DNA of 64,000 nucleotides from Acidimicrobiales bacterium (GCA_965263455.1 CBDHHN010000002.1:6938-70937); one strand, 5' to 3'. Positions 3,623-37,799 are shown, counted from the first letter of the stretch. Notes: a model not told the origin generated them from the sequence alone. Numbers and translations are program-made.

Positions 3623-5237
3623 CGGTGGCCCCGTCCCCGCCGTCCTCGGGCGAGGCGCCGTCCCCGGTGACCGGACCGTCGGCATCGGCATCGGCATCGG
3701 CATCGGCATCGGCATCGGCATCGGCATCGGCATCGGCATCGGCCCGGGAGTAGAGCGTCACCCCGTCGCGGTCGTGCAGGATGCGGAAGCCGAGCGCCGC
3801 CATGTTCTGGTCGAAATCGGCCCGGGCCCCCTCCGATCGGGGCGGCAACTGGTCGTCGACCAGGAGCACGGCTCGGGTGAAATCAGGGAAGCCGACCTGG
3901 GCCGCCGTCGGCTCCCGATCCTGGTCGAGGGGGAAGACCCACTCCCGGTTCGAGAGCACGGTCAGCGCCGCCGGCGAGGCCCGGACCGGGGTGTCGTCGC
4001 CGATGAGGGCCACGGCGTCGAGCACCGAGCGATCGGTCGGGGTCCGGGTGGCCCAGTCCCACGGGCGCTCGTAGGGCGAGATGGGCGACACGGCCACGTA
4101 GGACAACACGGCGGCGGCGGCCAGGGAGTACAGGAGCCGGACGTCGAGGAAGACCCGGTCGACACCCATGTTGCCCAGCCGGTTGAGGGCGAAGGTGGCG
4201 GCGATGAAGGAGAAGGCCAACAGCATGGCCGAGCGCTCGGCGAAGGCCGACGGCGAGATGGAGGTGGTCTCGGCCACCAGGTACAGGGCTCCCAGGGGCA
4301 GGGCCGGGGCCAGATGACGCAGCGACAGCAGGGGCAGGAACAGCACCGGCGACAACAACCCGACCACCAGCGACACGTTGCGGCGGGCCACCAGGTCCTG
4401 CACCAGTTGGAGGGGGTCGGCAACGGGGGCCAGCACCATCTCCCCGAAGAACGATCCGTCGGCCCCGAACCCGGAGGCCACGCCGGTCAGCCCGACCAGG
4501 GGCTCGACCACCATGAGCAGGCCCACCGACCACAGCAACCCCACCCCCAGGGTCCAGATCCCCATCGTCCGCTCCCGACTCCCGAGGACGACGAAACCCC
4601 AGAGGGCGACGGCCAGACCCAGGTCGGCCCGGCAGGCCAGCGCGACGGCGATCACCAACCAGTAGGGAACCCATTGCTTGACCGCGCCGAAGTAGGCCAT
4701 GGCGATGAGGGCGGGCACGGCCAGCGCCACCGGATGGAAGTCCTCGACCGCCAGCCGGTGGGTGGCGGGATGGACGGCATAGGCCAGGATGAGGGCGGCG
4801 GCCGCCCCCACCCGGAGATTGGCCACCCGCCGGGCCAGCCACCACAACGGAAGCACGGCGGCGGCCAACGCCCCGGCCTGGACCACGACCAGCAGTTCGG
4901 CCGTGGGGGCCACCAGGGCCAGGGCCGCCAACGGGTAGAGGATGATCGACCAGTTCAGCTCCAGCAGGTGGACCTCGGTGCCGAACAGCGAGGCCTGGGG
5001 CATGGTGCCCTCGCTCAGCAGCCACAGAGACTGGCTGTAGGCGGCGAGATCGAGACCCGTGTCGAGGGCCGTGATGCGGGCCAGGGCCGAGCGGATCAGG
5101 ACCGCGGCCAGCACCAGGGTGACGGCCACCGGAATCCACCGGTCACCGGCCCCGGCCTCGAGCCGGGCCTGTTGGCGGATGATCTGACGCCGGATCCTGC
5201 GCCGGACGGGGAGGCTGGTCGCCGCCGCCTCACTCAC
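3615..5237 (-). CDS. Polytopic membrane protein, DUF2079-like (GT-C-like)
   Basis: 540 aa with many TM helices. The N-terminal pattern LDLAAYSQSLWLLSEG...HLLELNWSIILYPLAAL resembles DUF2079. The C-terminal tail contains (AD)11. The GTG start overlaps the upstream stop (GTGAGTGA). Confidence 0.7.
   Translation of the reverse strand: MSEAAATSLPVRRRIRRQIIRQQARLEAGAGDRWIPVAVTLVLAAVLIRSALARITALDTGLDLAAYSQSLWLLSEGTMPQASLFGTEVHLLELNWSIILYPLAALALVAPTAELLVVVQAGALAAAVLPLWWLARRVANLRVGAAAALILAYAVHPATHRLAVEDFHPVALAVPALIAMAYFGAVKQWVPYWLVIAVALACRADLGLAVALWGFVVLGSRERTMGIWTLGVGLLWSVGLLMVVEPLVGLTGVASGFGADGSFFGEMVLAPVADPLQLVQDLVARRNVSLVVGLLSPVLFLPLLSLRHLAPALPLGALYLVAETTSISPSAFAERSAMLLAFSFIAATFALNRLGNMGVDRVFLDVRLLYSLAAAAVLSYVAVSPISPYERPWDWATRTPTDRSVLDAVALIGDDTPVRASPAALTVLSNREWVFPLDQDREPTAAQVGFPDFTRAVLLVDDQLPPRSEGARADFDQNMAALGFRILHDRDGVTLYSRADADADADADADADADADADADGPVTGDGASPEDGGDGATGG
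3681..3740. repeat. Perfect hexanucleotide microsatellite (GGCATC)x10
   Basis: Direct reading of 3681-3740. On the minus strand it encodes (Asp-Ala)n in the tail of the DUF2079 protein, and (Pro-Met)n in the frame of the downstream gene. Confidence 0.98.
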
Positions 5238-8489: not shown

Positions 8490-9074
8490 ATGACTTCGGT
8501 CCCCTCCCCGAGCCCCCCGAGGTCGGCGCCGGCCCGGCGTCGGCGCCGACTGCTCGTCATCGTGGCCGCGGCCCTGGGCCTGGCCGCCGCAGCCTGCGGC
8601 GACTCCTCGACGGCTCAGGACGAAGCCGGGGGCGTCGTCGCCGACGATGCCACCGTGCTCGATGCCGCCGTCTTCGACGGCACCGCCACCACCGTCGGCG
8701 GGGAGACGTACGATCTGGGCCAACTGGCCGACGCCGACCTGGTGCTGTGGTTCTGGGCCCCGTGGTGAACGTCGTGCAAAGCGGAGGGCCCTGCGGTCGC
8801 AGCGGTCGAGGCAACCTACGGTGACGAGGTCACCTTTGTCGGCATCGGGGGCGAAGCCCCGGGCCAGGAGTTCACCCCCTTCATCGAGCAGACGGGCACC
8901 GGGGCGTTCACCCACCTCGACGACTCGGCCGGTGACCTGTGGTCCCGGTTCGGGACCGGCGGTCGCTCCACCTTCTTGTTCGTCAACGACGACGGCACAT
9001 CGGTGCTGACCACCTATGGCGTGGTCGACGAGACCCGCCTGAAGGCCGAGGTCGAGCGGCTCATCGCCTCCTAG
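8490..9074 (+). CDS. TlpA/ResA-like thioredoxin-fold lipoprotein with an in-frame TGA (8766-8768) at the first Cys of CxxC; either a candidate selenoprotein (UxxC) or a very recent pseudogene
   Basis: The signal peptide and lipobox read RRRRRLLVIVAAALGLAAAAC. Around the TGA the sequence is ...LVLWFWAPW-TGA-TSCKAEGPAVAAVEATYGDEVTFVGIGG...GGRSTFLFVNDDGT...LIAS. The same frame stays open to TAG 9072-9074 with coding-like GC3. The track lists only 8490-8768. Confidence 0.7.
8787..8807 (+). promoter_or_regulatory. SECIS-like hairpin downstream of the in-frame TGA
   Basis: GGCCCUGC-GGUC-GCAG(C)GGUC forms an 8-bp stem with one bulged C and a GGUC apical loop. The stem starts 18 nt after the TGA and the loop starts 26 nt after it. 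Confidence 0.5.
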
Positions 9075-11407
9075 CCGCGGTCGGGGTCCGGCGACGGCGC
9101 CGGACCCGCCTCCGATCCCTCGGCCACGAAGGTCGGGGGATCGAAGGCCGTCACCGGGGGCGGCTCGCCCTCCAATCGTTCGACCTCGACCAGGCAGGTG
9201 TGGGCCGTCGGGCCCTGGGCCAGGCTCGAGGTTCCCTTGTCCCGGGTGAGGACGTTCGGGTTGCCGTGTTTGCACGTCCCGTCGTCGTCGGGGTCGTACC
9301 AGGCGCCGGTGGCCAACTGGACCACGCCGGGCGCCACCGCCGGGCTCAGCACCGCCCCGGCCAGACACGCCCCCCGCTCGTTGAACACCCGCACGACGTC
9401 GCCGTCGTCGATGCCGCGCCGGGCGGCGTCGAGCGGGTTGAGCCGGATCGGCTCCCGGCCTGCCACCTTGGCCGATCGGCTGTGATCGCTGTGGTCGTAC
9501 TGGGAGTGGAGGCGGGTGGTCGGCTGGTTCGAGACCAGGTGCAAGGGCCAACGATCGGCCCCCGCGCCGCCCAGGCGCTCGTAGGGCTCGTACCACCGGG
9601 GATGGCCGACGCAGTCGTCGTAGCCGTAGCCGTCGATCACTTCCGAGAACAGCTCGATCCTGCCCGACGGCGTGCCCAGCGGCCGGCCGTCGGGGTCGGA
9701 CCGGAACGACCCCAGGAACACCTGGTCGGTCTCGCCCATGGCCGGCATGGGGTGGACCACATGGCCGGTGGCCCGGAACTCCTCGTAGGGCGGCGCCGCC
9801 GGGTTCTCATCCCGAAAGCGATCGTAGAGGTGCCGGACCCACTGGTCGGCCGAGCGGCCCTCGGTGAACTCGGGCCCGAAGCCGAGCCGGTGGGCCAGGT
9901 CGGCGTAGACGGCGTAGTCGTCACGGGCCTCGCCCCTGGGGGCGACGGCCCGCTCCATGGCCAACAGGACGGTCTCGGCTCCGCCGAGGTCGTTGCGCTC
10001 GAGGGGTGTGGTCACCGGGAGGACGATGTCGGCCCGCTTGGCCATCGGGGTCCAGAACGGCTCGTGGACCACGATGGTGTCCGGCCGCCGCCAGGCCCGA
10101 TCGAGGCGGTTGAGGTCCTGGTGATGGTGGAAGACGTTGCCTCCGGCCCAGTACACGAGCCGGATGTCCGGGTACAGGTCATGGGTCCCGTCGAAGTCGT
10201 ACCCTCGTCCCGGCCCCTCCAGCATGTCGACGACCCGGGAGGTGGAGATCACGGGCGGCTCGGGGGGCCGGGCCGGAACCGGAAACCCCGGGACTCGTTT
10301 GCGCACCTGTCCCGCCCCGGCATTGCCGTTGGCGCCCAGCGGGAAGGCCAACCCACCGCCGGGGAGACCGACCTGACCCAGCACGCAGGCCAGGGCGAGG
10401 GCCATCCAGTACGGCTGCTCCCCGTGGTCGGCCCGCTGGACCGACAGGCTCAGGTTGATCAGGGTCCGGCCCGACGCCATCCGGTCGGCGAGGGCCTCGA
10501 TGGCCGCCACCTCGATGCCGCAGATCCCGGCCGCCCAGGAGGCCGACTTCGGTTGACCGTCGTCGGCGCCGGAGAGATAGGCCCACAGCCGATCCCAGCC
10601 GACGGTGTAGCGATCGAGGAAGCCGCGGTCGGCCCGGCCGCCGGTGACCAGCGTGTGGATCAGGCCGGCCATGAGGGCGGTGTCGGTCCCGGGGCGGGCC
10701 GGGAGCCAGGTGGTGTCCAGGTCGGACGGCTGGTCGTCGGCCAGAGGGCTGACGTTGACGAAGTGGATGCCTCGTTCCCGGGCCCGGTCGAGCCAGTACC
10801 GGTACCGATGGGGACCCTGGCCCCCGAAGGTGACCTGGGCGTTGTTGAGCCGGATGCTGCCGAAGCCCACGATGGTGTCGGTGTGGGCCACGATCTGCGA
10901 CCACGACGTCTGGGCCCCGACCGCTCGGCCGTAGCCCATGCCGAGGACGTGGGGCACGAGGGCCTCGGCCGCCGACCCGGAGTAGGTGCCGCGACCGTCG
11001 GTGTAGCCGCCGTAGAGGCGGAGGAACCGGTAGGTCTGATTCGACGGCAGGTGGAAACGGCCTGACGAGCCCCAGCCGTAGCTGGCGCCGTAGACGGCCT
11101 GATGGCCGTGCTCGTCCCGGACCCGGGCCAGTTCGGCCGCCACCAGGTCGAGGGCCCGGTCCCAGGAGACCTCGACGAAGGGTTCGCGGCCCCGGCCGTC
11201 GGTGGCCGCCCCCGGCCCGTCCTCCAACCACGAAAGGCGGACGGCGGGTCGGGCCACCCGGCACCGGTCCATGGCCGTCAGCCCCTGCCCCAGGGGCGAC
11301 GGGTCGGTGTCGAGCGGATGGGGGTGGACGGCGGTCACCCGCTCGCCGTCGGACTCGACCAGGAAGGGGCCCCAGTGGGTGGCGGTGGGGGTCAGCGTCA
11401 TGGCCAA
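9071..11407 (-). CDS. Molybdopterin (bis-MGD) oxidoreductase, BisC/TorZ-like S-/N-oxide reductase, cytoplasmic
   Basis: 778 aa. The N-terminus TATHWGPFLVESDGERVTAVHPHP resembles biotin sulfoxide reductase. There is no Tat signal and no N-terminal Fe-S Cys motif. Confidence 0.88.
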   Translation of the reverse strand: MAMTLTPTATHWGPFLVESDGERVTAVHPHPLDTDPSPLGQGLTAMDRCRVARPAVRLSWLEDGPGAATDGRGREPFVEVSWDRALDLVAAELARVRDEHGHQAVYGASYGWGSSGRFHLPSNQTYRFLRLYGGYTDGRGTYSGSAAEALVPHVLGMGYGRAVGAQTSWSQIVAHTDTIVGFGSIRLNNAQVTFGGQGPHRYRYWLDRARERGIHFVNVSPLADDQPSDLDTTWLPARPGTDTALMAGLIHTLVTGGRADRGFLDRYTVGWDRLWAYLSGADDGQPKSASWAAGICGIEVAAIEALADRMASGRTLINLSLSVQRADHGEQPYWMALALACVLGQVGLPGGGLAFPLGANGNAGAGQVRKRVPGFPVPARPPEPPVISTSRVVDMLEGPGRGYDFDGTHDLYPDIRLVYWAGGNVFHHHQDLNRLDRAWRRPDTIVVHEPFWTPMAKRADIVLPVTTPLERNDLGGAETVLLAMERAVAPRGEARDDYAVYADLAHRLGFGPEFTEGRSADQWVRHLYDRFRDENPAAPPYEEFRATGHVVHPMPAMGETDQVFLGSFRSDPDGRPLGTPSGRIELFSEVIDGYGYDDCVGHPRWYEPYERLGGAGADRWPLHLVSNQPTTRLHSQYDHSDHSRSAKVAGREPIRLNPLDAARRGIDDGDVVRVFNERGACLAGAVLSPAVAPGVVQLATGAWYDPDDDGTCKHGNPNVLTRDKGTSSLAQGPTAHTCLVEVERLEGEPPPVTAFDPPTFVAEGSEAGPAPSPDPDRG

Positions 11408-22751: not shown

Positions 22752-23117
<366 letters not shown>

Positions 23118-24536
23118 TCAGACGTTGATGCTGGTGGGCAGCAGGTCGGGGCCGTAGCCCGGGCTGCCGTGCTCGCTCACGTCGAGACCGGCCTGCTCCT
23201 CCTCCGGGCTGACCCGGAGCAGACCGGCGGCCTTGAGACCCATGAACATGGCCCCGGCGGTGGCGAAGACGAAGATGGCGATGGCGATGGCCCCGACCAG
23301 CTGGTCGACGAAGAGGTCGGCGTTGCCGCCCATCAGCAGGCCTGCGCTCTCGTCCGCCCCGTTGACCGGGGTCTGGCCGGCGAGAAGGCCGGTGGCCAGG
23401 AGGCCCCAGAACCCGGCCACGCCATGGACCGAGAAGGCGCCGACCGGGTCGTCGATGCCCAGGCGCTCGATCAGCAGCACCGACATCACCACGAGGACGC
23501 CGGCCACGGCGCCGGTGACCAGGGTCGACCAGGGACCGAACTCACCGATCCCCGAGCAGATGGCGACCAGGCCGGCCAGGATGCCGTTGCCCACCATCGA
23601 GACGTCGGGCTTGGGCATGGTGATCCACGAAGTGGCCAGGGCGGCGGCGCCGCCGGCGGTGGCGGCGAACGCCGTCAGAACGGCGATCACGGGCACGTTC
23701 ATGTCGGCCTGCAGCTGCGAGCCGGGGTTGAACCCGAACCAGCCGATGAACAGCAGGAACACACCGGCCATGGCCAGAGGAATGCTGTGGCCGGGCATGG
23801 CCCGGGGCTTGCCGTCGTCGCCGTACTTGCCGATGCGGGGGCCGATGACCATGGCCCCGGCCAGGGCGGCGAAACCACCGGTCATGTGCACCAGGCCCGA
23901 GCCGGCGAAGTCGATGAAGCCGGCGTCGTCGAGCCAGCCGCCGCCCCACTTCCAGCTGACCACGATCGGGTAGATGATGGCGGTGAGGATGATCGAGTAG
24001 CTGAGGTAGCCGACGAACTTGGTCCGCCCGGCCACGGCGCCCGACACGATCGTGGCGGCGGCGGCGGCGAAGGCGGCCTGGAACAGGAAGTCGACGGGCA
24101 CGGCCAGCGGGTAGAAGTCCTCGGAGGCCAGCGCCTCGGGGCTGACGTCCACCAGCACACCGCCGAAGAAGCCGTCGATGCCGAGACCGGCCGAGCCGAT
24201 CCAGTTGTTGAAGTCGCCGGGATAGGCGATGCCCCACCCGATGAGGGCGAACATCAGCACGCCGATGCACAGGTCCATCAGGTTCTTCATCATGATGTTG
24301 GCGGCGTTCTTGGCCCGGGTGAGGCCCGCCTCCAGCAGGGCGAAGCCGGGCTGCATCAGGAAGACCAGCACGGCGGCCAGGAAGATGAAGATGTTGTCGA
24401 GGACGACCATGTTCATGGCCTCGGCCCCGGTCGCCGCCGTGCGGTCGTACTGCTCGGCCTGGGCCGCCGCCGGTGCGGCCAGAGCCAACAGTGACCCCAC
24501 ACCAACGGTGAGTGCCAACAACAGTTTTCGTGTCAT
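23118..24536 (-). CDS. amt: Ammonium transporter
   Basis: 472 aa from MTRKLLLALTV (signal peptide). It has Amt signatures (FLMQPGFALLEAG, FDFAGSGLVHM-type, VHGVAGFWG). The extension of track ORF 23118-24689 is non-coding leader. Confidence 0.95.
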   Translation of the reverse strand: MTRKLLLALTVGVGSLLALAAPAAAQAEQYDRTAATGAEAMNMVVLDNIFIFLAAVLVFLMQPGFALLEAGLTRAKNAANIMMKNLMDLCIGVLMFALIGWGIAYPGDFNNWIGSAGLGIDGFFGGVLVDVSPEALASEDFYPLAVPVDFLFQAAFAAAAATIVSGAVAGRTKFVGYLSYSIILTAIIYPIVVSWKWGGGWLDDAGFIDFAGSGLVHMTGGFAALAGAMVIGPRIGKYGDDGKPRAMPGHSIPLAMAGVFLLFIGWFGFNPGSQLQADMNVPVIAVLTAFAATAGGAAALATSWITMPKPDVSMVGNGILAGLVAICSGIGEFGPWSTLVTGAVAGVLVVMSVLLIERLGIDDPVGAFSVHGVAGFWGLLATGLLAGQTPVNGADESAGLLMGGNADLFVDQLVGAIAIAIFVFATAGAMFMGLKAAGLLRVSPEEEQAGLDVSEHGSPGYGPDLLPTSINV

Positions 24537-24581
24537 GAGACTGCTCCTTGTCGCTTCAGGGCCAGAAGCTACGAGCAGGTC

Positions 24582-24608
24582 GTTTCCGCGGTGTTCTCGT
24601 CCCGTTAC
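24582..24608 (-). promoter_or_regulatory. GlnR-box-like element upstream of amt
   Basis: The minus strand reads GTAAC-gggacg-AGAAC-accgcg-GAAAC (5-n6-5-n6-5), 45 nt upstream of the amt ATG. It resembles the actinobacterial gTnAc-n6-GaAAc boxes. Confidence 0.5.
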
Positions 24609-24772
24609 GCCCTGAGGACACGCTTCTGTCGCTCTTCTTTCGCTCGCCTGTCGGCGGGCGGCCACCCGGACGCGACGAAACGGACCCACGCCGGGTCCGT
24701 CGGCGCCGTCCCCGCTCCCGGAGAGACGGGATTCTCGTCGGGCAAGAGTCCGAGCCCGCCAGGGCCCGACCC

Positions 24773-25243
24773 TCAGCCCCCCAGGACGTACCCGCGCTTG
24801 CGCACGGTCCGGATCGTCAGCCCCAACGGCTCCAGCCGCCGCCGCAGGCGCAGGACATGGACGTCGAGCACGTTGCGCTTCGGCTCCTCGCCGGGCCAGC
24901 CCCGCTCGATCAGCTGCTCACGGCTGACGACCTTGCCGAACCGCTCCAGCATGGCTCGCACCAGGCGGGCCTCGATCGGGGGCAGGGCGGCCCACACCTC
25001 GCCGTGGCGGAGGACGCCGTCCTCGTCGAGGGTCGGCTCCACCTCGGTCCGCCGGTCGAGGGCCTCGACCCGGGCCTGGAGATCGCGCTCGTCGGCCGGC
25101 AGACGGATCCAGTCCTCGAGGGGATCGACGGTGACCGGGGCCGGTTCCGAGGTCTCGACCAGAAGGATGCGGGGCTGGGCGCGCTCTCGGAGCAGAGCCC
25201 GTCGCTCGCGCTCCCCCGGCCAGTACACCAGCTCCACCTTCAT
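24773..25243 (-). CDS. Small OmpR/PhoB-type winged-helix DNA-binding protein with a truncated, receiver-less N-terminus
   Basis: 156 aa from MKVELVYWPG. The C-terminus LPPIEARLVRAMLERFGKVVSREQL...VLDVHVLRLRRRLEPLGLTIRTVRKRGYVL is a Trans_reg_C fold. The N-terminal segment of about 60 aa is too short for a receiver domain. Confidence 0.8.
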   Translation of the reverse strand: MKVELVYWPGERERRALLRERAQPRILLVETSEPAPVTVDPLEDWIRLPADERDLQARVEALDRRTEVEPTLDEDGVLRHGEVWAALPPIEARLVRAMLERFGKVVSREQLIERGWPGEEPKRNVLDVHVLRLRRRLEPLGLTIRTVRKRGYVLGG

Positions 25244-34116: not shown

Positions 34117-34244
34117 AGACCGGCCGACCGCCCGGAATTCGGACCCTCCGACCAGGTTTCACTACGCTTCTCTAAGTACCTGGGAGCCCGGCCGGGCTCG
34201 CGGCCGAGGCCACACCCGGTGGTCGAAGGTGAGCGAAAGGGGAC

Positions 34245-36107
<1,863 letters not shown>

Positions 36108-36215
36108 CGGGGGCGGGGCGCGGCCGCCGGCCTTCCGATTCGGCGGGCGGTGCATCCGGAATCGCTCCAGGGAGCGAAGGAGCATGCAGATACTCACACA
36201 ACAAGGAGTGCACGC

Positions 36216-37013
36216 ATGTTCCGAATCCGAACCCTGCTGGCCGGTGTCGCCGTCCTGGCCCTGGCCCTGGCCACGCTGGCCCTTCCCGCCTCGGCCGACG
36301 ACGCCCGGATCCACCTCATCCACGGCATCCCCGACACCGATGTCGACGTGGAGGCCAACGGCGACAACGTCTTCGAGAACTTCTCGTTCGGCGACACCCA
36401 GGACCTGTCCGGCCTGGCCGGCGCCACCCTGGCCGGACTGAAGGTCAAGGCCGCCGGTACCGACACCGTGGCCATCGACGCCGGTGACGTCACCCTCCCC
36501 GACGACGGCAACACCACCATCATCGCCCACCTGGACGCCTCGGGCACCCCGACGCTGTCGATCTTCGAGAACGACACCTCCACCATCGACGCCGGCGAGG
36601 GTCGCCTGGTCGTCCGCCACACGGCGGCCGCCCCCGAGGTCGACATCAAGGCCAACGGCGACGTCGCCTTCGCCTCGGTTCCCAACGGGGCCGAGGGCTC
36701 GGTCGACCTGGCCACCGGCACCGTCACGGCCGAGGTCGTGCCCGCCGGGGCCGCTGACCCCGTCGTCATCGGCCCGGCCGATCTGCCCATCAACGAGGGT
36801 GAGTCCCTGATCGTGTACGCCGTCGGCTCGCTCGACGACGGGAACCTGTCGGTCCTGACCGAGTCGATCACCGGTCTCCACACCTCGCCCAACCAGGTCA
36901 ACACCGGTACCAGCCCCGTGTCCGACGGCGTCGCCCCCGCCCTGGTGGCCACCGTCCTCGGCCTCGGTGTCGCCGCCGGCGGCGGACTGGTCCTGGCCCG
37001 TCGGCGGGCCTGA
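36216..37013 (+). CDS. DUF4397-domain surface protein with a C-terminal sortase-type sorting signal
   Basis: An AAGGAG RBS lies 7 nt upstream. Signal peptide MFRIRTLLAGVAVLALALATLALPASA. The C-terminus is QVNTG, then a hydrophobic stretch ALVATVLGLGVAAGGGLVL, then ARRRA. Confidence 0.8.
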   Translation: MFRIRTLLAGVAVLALALATLALPASADDARIHLIHGIPDTDVDVEANGDNVFENFSFGDTQDLSGLAGATLAGLKVKAAGTDTVAIDAGDVTLPDDGNTTIIAHLDASGTPTLSIFENDTSTIDAGEGRLVVRHTAAAPEVDIKANGDVAFASVPNGAEGSVDLATGTVTAEVVPAGAADPVVIGPADLPINEGESLIVYAVGSLDDGNLSVLTESITGLHTSPNQVNTGTSPVSDGVAPALVATVLGLGVAAGGGLVLARRRA

Positions 37014-37043
37014 GCCCCACCGACCGGAACCGGAGTCTCCGAC

Positions 37044-37799
37044 ATGGCTCGACGCTCCCCCACCGTCGCCGTCGCCCTGCTGGCCGCACTGACCCTCGTG
37101 GTATCGGCCTGCACCACCGGCTCGGCCTCCACCGCCGCCGACCCGATCGTGGTGTCGGGACCACAGGGCGACGGCGCCGAGTCGTCGGAGACCGGTTCCC
37201 CCCAGTCCGACTCGGCCGGCGCCCCCACGGCGGCCGGGTCGGACCCGGCCGCCGCTGACGGCGGCGACGAGCAGCCCGCCCTGTCGGCGGCCGAGGTGGC
37301 CGCCCGCATCGAGCAGTTGCCGACCGCCCTCGACGTCCCCGAGTTCCGGCCCGGGCCCGAACCGATCGCCATCTCGTTCCCCGCCATCGGGGTCGAGGGC
37401 TCCCCGATCGACGGTGTCGGAGTCGAGCCCAACGGCGAGCTGGAAGTGCCGGAGGCCCGGCGGGTCGGCTGGTACGAGTACGGCCCGTCGCCCGGCCAGG
37501 ACGGTTCCAGCGTCCTGGCCGGCCACATCGCCGCCGACGGGATCGACGGCGTGTTCCGCCGCCTGGCGGACGCCGAGCCCGGCGACCGGTTCGATCTCGA
37601 GTTCCGCACCGGGGAGCGGGCCAGCTTCGAGATCATCGAGATGGCCCAGTACGACAAGGACGAGCTGCCCCTGCCCCGGGTGTTCGCCCGGGATGGACGT
37701 CCCGTGGTCACCCTGATCACCTGCGGTGGCGACTTCCAGCCCTCACTCGGAAGCTACGAGGACAACATCGTGGCCTACGCCGTCCCGGTCGAGCCATGA
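37044..37799 (+). CDS. Class F sortase
   Basis: VLAGHI (catalytic His region), TLITCGG (catalytic Cys), and an N-terminal lipoprotein-like anchor. Confidence 0.88.
   Translation: MARRSPTVAVALLAALTLVVSACTTGSASTAADPIVVSGPQGDGAESSETGSPQSDSAGAPTAAGSDPAAADGGDEQPALSAAEVAARIEQLPTALDVPEFRPGPEPIAISFPAIGVEGSPIDGVGVEPNGELEVPEARRVGWYEYGPSPGQDGSSVLAGHIAADGIDGVFRRLADAEPGDRFDLEFRTGERASFEIIEMAQYDKDELPLPRVFARDGRPVVTLITCGGDFQPSLGSYEDNIVAYAVPVEP

Follow-up and report, generated by a model that had tools for sequence, protein, structure and literature searches.

Thioredoxin-fold selenoproteins with a UxxC active site, in which U is selenocysteine (Sec), are the commonest type of selenoprotein in bacteria. Among thiol-disulfide oxidoreductases of this fold with two active-site cysteines, DsbE and DsbF are oxidants in vitro and ResA is a reductase. 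TlpA-like selenoproteins with a UxxC motif have been catalogued since 2005 (PMC1088965, PMC1794560, PMC5029168, PMC13188914). For example, a selenoprotein named "Thiol:disulfide interchange protein" was reported in 2006 (PMC1794560) and was listed for 14 organisms in 2016 (PMC5029168), and a 2026 review includes a "Redoxin family protein" (UxxC) and a "UGC-containing TlpA" family (PMC13188914). Here, we analyze a gene at positions 8490-9074 in a stretch of 64,000 nucleotides from an Acidimicrobiales bacterium (GCA_965263455.1, CBDHHN010000002.1:6938-70937). The whole stretch is called the window, and positions are counted from its first letter. The gene encodes a TlpA/ResA-like redoxin with an in-frame TGA where its Cys-type homologues have the first active-site cysteine. 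Very probably, this TGA is truly decoded as Sec, and what doubt is left concerns mainly the retention of the Sec machinery in this genome.

A redoxin gene with TGA in place of its first active-site cysteine

The read-through coding sequence lies on the plus strand (8490-9074) and has 194 codons and a stop, that is, 92 codons, the proposed Sec codon 93 and a further 101 codons. Translation of the window from ATG 8490 gives 92 sense codons ending in ...LVLWFWAPW, followed by TGA at 8766-8768 and then by 101 sense codons in the same frame (TSCKAEGPAVAAVEATYGDEVTFVGIGG...ERLIAS) up to TAG 9072-9074. Around the TGA the DNA reads ccg tgg TGA acg tcg tgc aaa (P-W-stop-T-S-C-K). The TGA thus opens the motif U-T-S-C, and the TGC at 8775-8777 encodes Cys96, the resolving cysteine of UxxC. 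This TGA is the sole interruption of the frame, in which there is no other stop and no frameshift, and the G+C content at third codon positions (GC3) is 0.88 on its 5' side and 0.87-0.89 on its 3' side. TGA is this organism's ordinary stop codon: of the window's 46 coding-like stop-to-stop frames, 36 are closed by TGA and ten by TAG. Therefore, a codon reassignment of TGA is excluded.

The protein-level searches were run on the read-through product with Cys put in place of the stop. Its Pfam scores are above the gathering cut-offs for Thioredoxin (29; cut-off 23.5), Redoxin (PF08534, 28.6; cut-off 26.6) and AhpC-TSA (PF00578, 28.1; cut-off 26). When 16 database homologues are aligned, the TGA falls in the column of the first Cys of LWFWAPWCxxC, which is invariant, and the same holds against DsbE/DsbF. 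The column of Cys96 is also invariant among the homologues. The best sequence matches in the PDB are MPT53/DsbE (1LU4, E 9e-20) and DsbF (3IOS, E 6e-19), and both alignments cross the TGA. The AlphaFold2 model has a mean predicted local distance difference test score (pLDDT) of 82.7, exceeding 90 over most of residues 60-194, and consists of one thioredoxin-fold domain. It places U93..C96 between strand 84-89 and helix 95-110, which is the canonical position of CxxC. In a Foldseek comparison the closest structures are DsbF (3IOS; template modelling (TM) score 0.92, root-mean-square deviation (rmsd) 1.5 A) and DsbE (1LU4; TM 0.91, rmsd 1.2 A), followed by ResA, and the best 25 matches are all DsbF, DsbE, ResA or DsbE-like proteins. 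The active-site context, WFWAPW-U-TS-C-KA-E-G-P, fits the DsbE/DsbF pattern FW(A/T)PW-C-x-x-C-x-x-E-(A/G)-P. Taken together, the sequence and fold matches support the assignment of the predicted product as a DsbE/DsbF-like thioredoxin-fold oxidoreductase carrying a Sec variant of the DsbE/DsbF motif.

The first-pass annotation, made from the sequence alone, had claimed a single in-frame TGA replacing the first Cys of CxxC, an open frame beyond it up to the TAG that encodes the rest of a thioredoxin fold, and a GC3 that stays high with no frameshift or further stop. Each of these points is borne out by the translation, the homologue alignment and the Pfam, PDB and model coverage of both halves. 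It had also expected that standard gene callers would truncate or miss the gene. Neither half of the redoxin is found in the protein database that we searched, although the product of a neighbouring gene on the same contig is present there. Gene callers have therefore missed the redoxin gene, and it is not called in its own genome.

The N-terminus resembles an export signal. Residues 1-36 (8490-8597, plus strand) comprise an RRRRR n-region, a hydrophobic segment LLVIVAAALGLAAAA and a lipobox-like AAAC|G with Cys36 (TGC, 8595-8597). The residues AC(G) at the position of Cys36 are the majority residues in 121 aligned family members and also occur in Cys homologues. In the PROSITE lipobox rule the Cys usually lies at positions 15-35, and Cys36 falls one residue past this range. 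Read directly from the sequence, a lipoprotein signal with lipidation on Cys36 is plausible.

Recurrence of the TGA and a covarying hairpin after it

We scanned a collection with one genome per bacterial or archaeal species for the pattern TGGTTYTGGGCNCCNTGGTGANNNNNNTGY, which encodes WFWAPW-TGA-xx-C. With 20 fixed and 2 twofold positions over 1.2e12 positions, about 0.3 matches are expected by chance. Matches were found at no fewer than 120 loci from other species. The record titles of the 120 loci listed name Acidimicrobiia taxa in 76 cases, generic Actinomycetota in 33, Nitriliruptoria in 6 and other or unclassified sources in 5, and these last five may be mis-binned contigs. The Acidimicrobiia titles include Acidimicrobiales, Ilumatobacter, Microthrix, Ca. 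Poriferisodalis and Ca. Aldehydirespiratoraceae, and the Ilumatobacter matches come from metagenome-assembled genomes. At 113 of the 120 loci listed, an open frame of 90-107 codons with recognisable family residues follows the TGA and is closed by a stop codon, and at five the end of the locus precedes any stop. Because the same TGA occurs in at least 120 species with the rest of the gene intact, neither a lesion nor a sequencing error can explain it.

The closest relative among the matches listed, L009, has the TGA form and shares 65% identity with the window protein over 139 residues, whereas the Cys-type homologues share only about 40%. In the downstream half the proportions of nonsynonymous (pN) and synonymous (pS) differences between the window gene and L009 are 0.21 and 0.42, with no indel and no stop. 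Across the 121 aligned family members, the conserved residues extend through the C-terminal half. These comparisons indicate that the downstream half is conserved and under purifying selection. The first-pass annotation had proposed that orthologues be examined for TGA or TGC/TGT at this codon and for selection downstream of it. The orthologues carry TGA, and together with the conservation after it and the hairpin described below this lends support to its claim of a UxxC selenoprotein.

Ten metagenome-assembled genomes (MAGs) among the loci listed have two separate WFWAPW-TGA-xxC genes each, so that paralogues are often present. These are the pairs L064/L068 (on one contig), L036/L084, L017/L111, L035/L051, L010/L118, L060/L098, L099/L120, L028/L113, L039/L097 and L065/L073. 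We propose, tentatively and with somewhat less than even confidence, that the WFWAPW-U-xx-C lipoproteins are a distinct, unannotated, clade-wide family that is found in no fewer than 120 Acidimicrobiia and Nitriliruptoria species, often as two paralogues, has its own conserved GGUC hairpin and lacks an NCBIfam or Rfam model.

The hairpin is a selenocysteine insertion sequence (SECIS)-type element within the coding sequence, at 8787-8807 on the plus strand (GGCCCUGC-GGUC-GCAG(C)GGUC). It begins 21 nucleotides past the TGA and has 8 base pairs and one bulged C (8803). Its GGUC tetraloop (8795-8798) occupies nucleotides 30-33 counted from the U of UGA. The hairpin is the minimum-free-energy fold of the region, with an energy of -10.3 kcal/mol when folded alone. 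The evidence for its conservation comes from 120 sequences, namely the window and the 119 loci with enough flank. GGTC is found at the identical offset in 94 of the 120, including the window. These 94 align without gaps (alignment A2), and T10 and G11, which lie within the TGC of Cys96, are invariant in A2. For the seven stem pairs in these 94 sequences, 86% of cells are paired, compared with 27-58% in controls in which the 3' side of the stem is shifted by 1-3 columns. Double changes occupy 49 cells, compared with 11.3 in column shuffles, and none of 500 shuffles reaches the observed value. In five of the seven stem pairs both partners vary, with changes such as G-C to U-A, U-A to C-G and C-G to G-U. 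RNAalifold independently recovers three core pairs, every one with compensatory changes, although the consensus energy is weak.

The changes in the stem span codons and alter amino acids jointly, as in A-V-A to S-V-E. Since pairing is kept while the amino acids change together, selection on the RNA is indicated. In the window, the U-A stem pair is built by two rare codons, namely CCT, which accounts for 3.1% of Pro codons, and GCA, which accounts for 2.0% of Ala codons. The element is absent from the three Cys-type homologues that were examined as DNA, which is a small control. In the remaining 26 of the 120 aligned sequences the hairpin lies 5-9 nucleotides further downstream, with a loop that mostly contains GGU; examples are L014, L038 and L080 (GCGC-AGGUG-GCGC) and L028, L056 and L113 (GGCUGC-GGUC-GCAGCC). 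Thus, the distance from the UGA to the hairpin varies within a single protein family. These data support the identification of 8787-8807 as a selenocysteine-insertion type element, with a putative role in SelB binding.

Proposed selenocysteine decoding, its alternatives and the genomic context

We suggest that the gene encodes a membrane-anchored extracytoplasmic thiol-disulfide oxidoreductase of the actinobacterial DsbE/DsbF branch of TlpA/ResA-like proteins, in which Sec would replace the N-terminal active-site Cys to give U93-T-S-C96. During translation, the mRNA hairpin with its GGUC loop would recruit SelB with GTP and Sec-tRNA(Sec), and the UGA at 8766-8768 would be read as Sec. The 194-residue precursor would then be exported by means of its Arg-rich signal peptide and probably lipidated on Cys36. 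Finally, the mature domain would exchange disulfides with substrates in the envelope through a Sec93-Cys96 selenenylsulfide, and it may act as an oxidant or as a reductant.

The Sec trait is documented at the level of the clade, for cultured Acidimicrobiia. The supplement of a published survey has positive entries in three Sec-trait columns, read here as SelD, SelA and SelB, for Ilumatobacter coccineus, I. nonamiensis and Ca. Microthrix parvicella, to which it assigns 15, 10 and 7 selenoproteins, respectively (PMC5029168). In the same supplement Acidimicrobium ferrooxidans is scored negative, and the trait is patchy in Actinobacteria. In addition, selA, selC and selD are reported in 84 of 84 complete Actinomarina genomes, in which the selB-like gene is divergent and scores too low to pass the threshold for annotation (bioRxiv 10.64898/2026.04.03.716425). 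The first-pass annotation had called such a selenoprotein uncommon in an actinobacterium. Given the catalogued UxxC families and the 7-15 selenoproteins in cultured Acidimicrobiia, this was overstated (PMC5029168, PMC13188914).

Several observations weigh against Sec decoding of this gene. The 64-kb window has no tRNA of any kind, and hence no tRNA-Sec, by ARAGORN, which also found no tRNA-Sec in 120 related 8-kb loci. In tblastn searches with Escherichia coli queries, nothing similar to SelA, SelB or SelD was found in the window, and SelA and SelD were not found in the 120 related loci. Three weak SelB matches were read from their sequence as TypA/BipA-type GTPases, no family search having been run on them. 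The hairpin region folds no more stably than shuffled sequence (z = +0.79), and therefore the case for the hairpin rests on conservation, covariation and codon choice and not on energy. No relevant Rfam family was found, either in the whole window at gathering scores or in 8700-8900 at E up to 10. The loop lies at nucleotides 30-33, compared with 22-25 in the E. coli fdhF element, i.e., 8 nucleotides further from the UGA. The pN/pS ratio of about 0.5 is just moderately low. The cis-Pro that is found in DsbE/DsbF and in most of the family (QPAF) is replaced by a serine in both the window copy (Ser160, 8967-8969, in GGRSTF) and L009, and some Cys-type homologues (EQSSF) also carry this substitution. 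Lastly, no conserved neighbour that would suggest a redox partner was found among the 120 loci, where the neighbour clusters were without Pfam annotation.

One alternative explanation is that the gene is an intact Sec-type gene in a genome that has lost Sec decoding. Its product would then be a 92-residue fragment or nothing useful, and the gene would be a very recent relic. This is consistent with the lack of any Sec machinery gene or tRNA-Sec within the 64-kb window and with the patchy trait, as illustrated by A. ferrooxidans (PMC5029168). It is also consistent with the scan of the window for in-frame TGAs flanked by coding-like sequence on both sides, in which only TGA 8766-8768 falls within a gene, so that the 64 kb hold no second selenoprotein gene. 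However, the 101 downstream codons hold their GC3 with no stop or indel, the differences from the 65%-identical L009 are mostly synonymous, and the hairpin is still made with two codons used at 2-3%, which drift would quickly erase. We therefore regard such a loss as unlikely. A different possibility is that the UGA is read through without selenium, either by a near-cognate tRNA for Trp or Cys or with the hairpin acting as a general stimulator of read-through. Leaky decoding of UGA by tRNA-Trp does occur in bacteria. Nevertheless, Trp at the position of the nucleophile would abolish catalysis, and an enzyme with Cys there could be encoded more simply by a Cys codon. Moreover, the hairpin has the same GGUC loop to which SelB binds in fdhF, and Sec machinery is documented in the carrier lineages. 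Read-through of this kind is thus highly improbable.

The two remaining explanations deny that there is a Sec codon in a single gene at all. A Cys-type redoxin could have acquired the TGA by a nonsense mutation or by an assembly or sequencing error, which would make the locus a pseudogene or an artefact. A single base change turns TGC or TGT into TGA, and every database protein recovered as a homologue has Cys. This explanation is effectively refuted by the recurrence of the TGA with an open downstream frame, by the nearest relatives of the window protein among the matches listed, which are TGA forms and not Cys forms, and by the conserved covarying hairpin that follows the codon and is missing from the three Cys forms. 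The other explanation is that of two genes, a short lipoprotein at 8490-8768 and an independent open reading frame (ORF) at 8769-9074, in keeping with the mechanical ORF list, which closes its first ORF at 8768. But the second part begins with TSCKAEGP... and has no start codon, its first in-frame ATG, GTG or TTG lying well inside the fold. Moreover, the CxxC helix would be split between the two halves, which the PDB matches and the model treat as one domain. This single-domain alignment refutes the two-gene explanation. Decoding of the TGA as Sec in one gene therefore remains the reading that we favor.

The redoxin gene is flanked in the window by a nitroreductase and, on the opposite strand, by a BisC-like molybdenum oxidoreductase. 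The latter, a biotin/methionine-sulfoxide-reductase-like molybdopterin oxidoreductase (9071-11407, minus strand), converges on the redoxin gene, and the 3' ends of the two genes overlap by 4 nucleotides. Its nearest named relatives are in Acidimicrobiales and Actinomycetota MAGs. The adjacency to the nitroreductase and the molybdenum oxidoreductase is not conserved beside the relatives' genes at the 120 related loci. At 21 of these 120 loci, a dihydrolipoamide-dehydrogenase-like (lpd-like) gene lies about 0.4-2 kb upstream of the redoxin gene, divergent from it on the opposite strand, and at 12 loci a lipoamide acyltransferase (E2)-like gene lies still further upstream. Neither the lpd-like nor the E2-like gene is present in the window.

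Elsewhere in the window, same-frame TGA junctions are those of ordinary adjacent genes, such as amtB/glnB. At 22752-24917 (minus strand), two same-frame ORFs split by one TGA were identified by eye as genes for an ammonium transporter and, after it, a PII protein. At 34233-37799 (plus strand), same-frame ORFs were likewise identified by eye as a Baeyer-Villiger-type monooxygenase, a secreted protein and a sortase-like protein with TLITCGG. Outside the window, an Acidimicrobiales MAG (locus L119, about position 5034, plus strand) has a rhodanese-like ORF with an in-frame TGA (VVVYCWDSL-TGA-DMSQRAAWQLE) and high GC3 on both sides. This ORF may represent a second selenoprotein family in the clade.

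Significance and comparison with known systems

The predicted proteome of the source genome lacks the product of this gene, and those of more than 100 related species probably lack it as well. Because the gene is not called, an extracytoplasmic redox enzyme of a widespread class of actinobacteria is invisible to standard pipelines. The signature of WFWAPW-TGA-xx-TGY together with a GGUC-capped stem is simple and specific, and it could be used as a protein and RNA model for annotation repair. The gene would extend the selenoproteins of a high-GC, mostly aerobic lineage by one that is exported and probably anchored by a lipid. If the distinct clade-wide family is real, the envelope disulfide chemistry of abundant marine, soil and sponge-associated actinobacteria would be selenium-dependent, and their predicted proteomes would systematically lack the WFWAPW-U-xx-C enzyme. 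The known picture of selenoprotein biology is unchanged. The UxxC TlpA-like type is already known and its occurrence here would not surprise a specialist, but the finding is useful for annotation.

Like the window protein, the catalogued UxxC TlpA-like families have a thioredoxin fold with Sec as the N-terminal nucleophile, and they are predicted to act in thiol-disulfide exchange outside the cytoplasm. They were found by the same logic, i.e., a TGA aligned with Cys and then a bacterial SECIS. The families are compared here by description only, and the WFWAPW-U-xx-C lipoproteins may belong to one of them or form a sister clade. Deltaproteobacteria and unassigned marine reads were the sources of the early members, whereas the clade of the window protein is the Acidimicrobiia. 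A curated NCBIfam entry, NF041054 (ResA-like WAxxUGC motif-containing protein), likewise describes a ResA-like thioredoxin-fold selenoprotein with Sec after W-A-x-x. However, its profile has 354 residues compared with 194 in the window protein, and its motif is UGC and not U-T-S-C. Membership in NF041054 is rejected, since the window protein scores 19.9 bits against a cut-off of 300 and its motif is WAPW-U-TSC and not WAxxUGC.

For the RNA element, the closest reference is the SECIS of E. coli fdhF. Both fold as hairpins inside the coding sequence just 3' of the UGA, with a GGUC apical tetraloop and, a few pairs beneath it, a bulge or a mismatch. The stem sequence of fdhF is unrelated to that of the window. 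By analogy, the hairpin resembles a SECIS without having the E. coli geometry, and its binding by SelB is putative.

For the protein, the best sequence and fold matches are Mycobacterium tuberculosis DsbE (MPT53, Rv2878c; 1LU4) and DsbF (Rv1677; 3IOS), which are like the window protein in the context of the active site. By sequence and by its modelled fold, the window protein resembles these two more closely than ResA. Both are secreted or lipid-anchored actinobacterial proteins, as the window product may be. They differ in having Cys and not Sec at the first active-site position, and in retaining the cis-Pro where the window copy has Ser160, and the identity is 31-33%. DsbE/DsbF and the family of the window protein form a natural Cys/Sec pair, which could serve to examine the advantage that selenium gives to a disulfide oxidoreductase working outside the cytoplasm.

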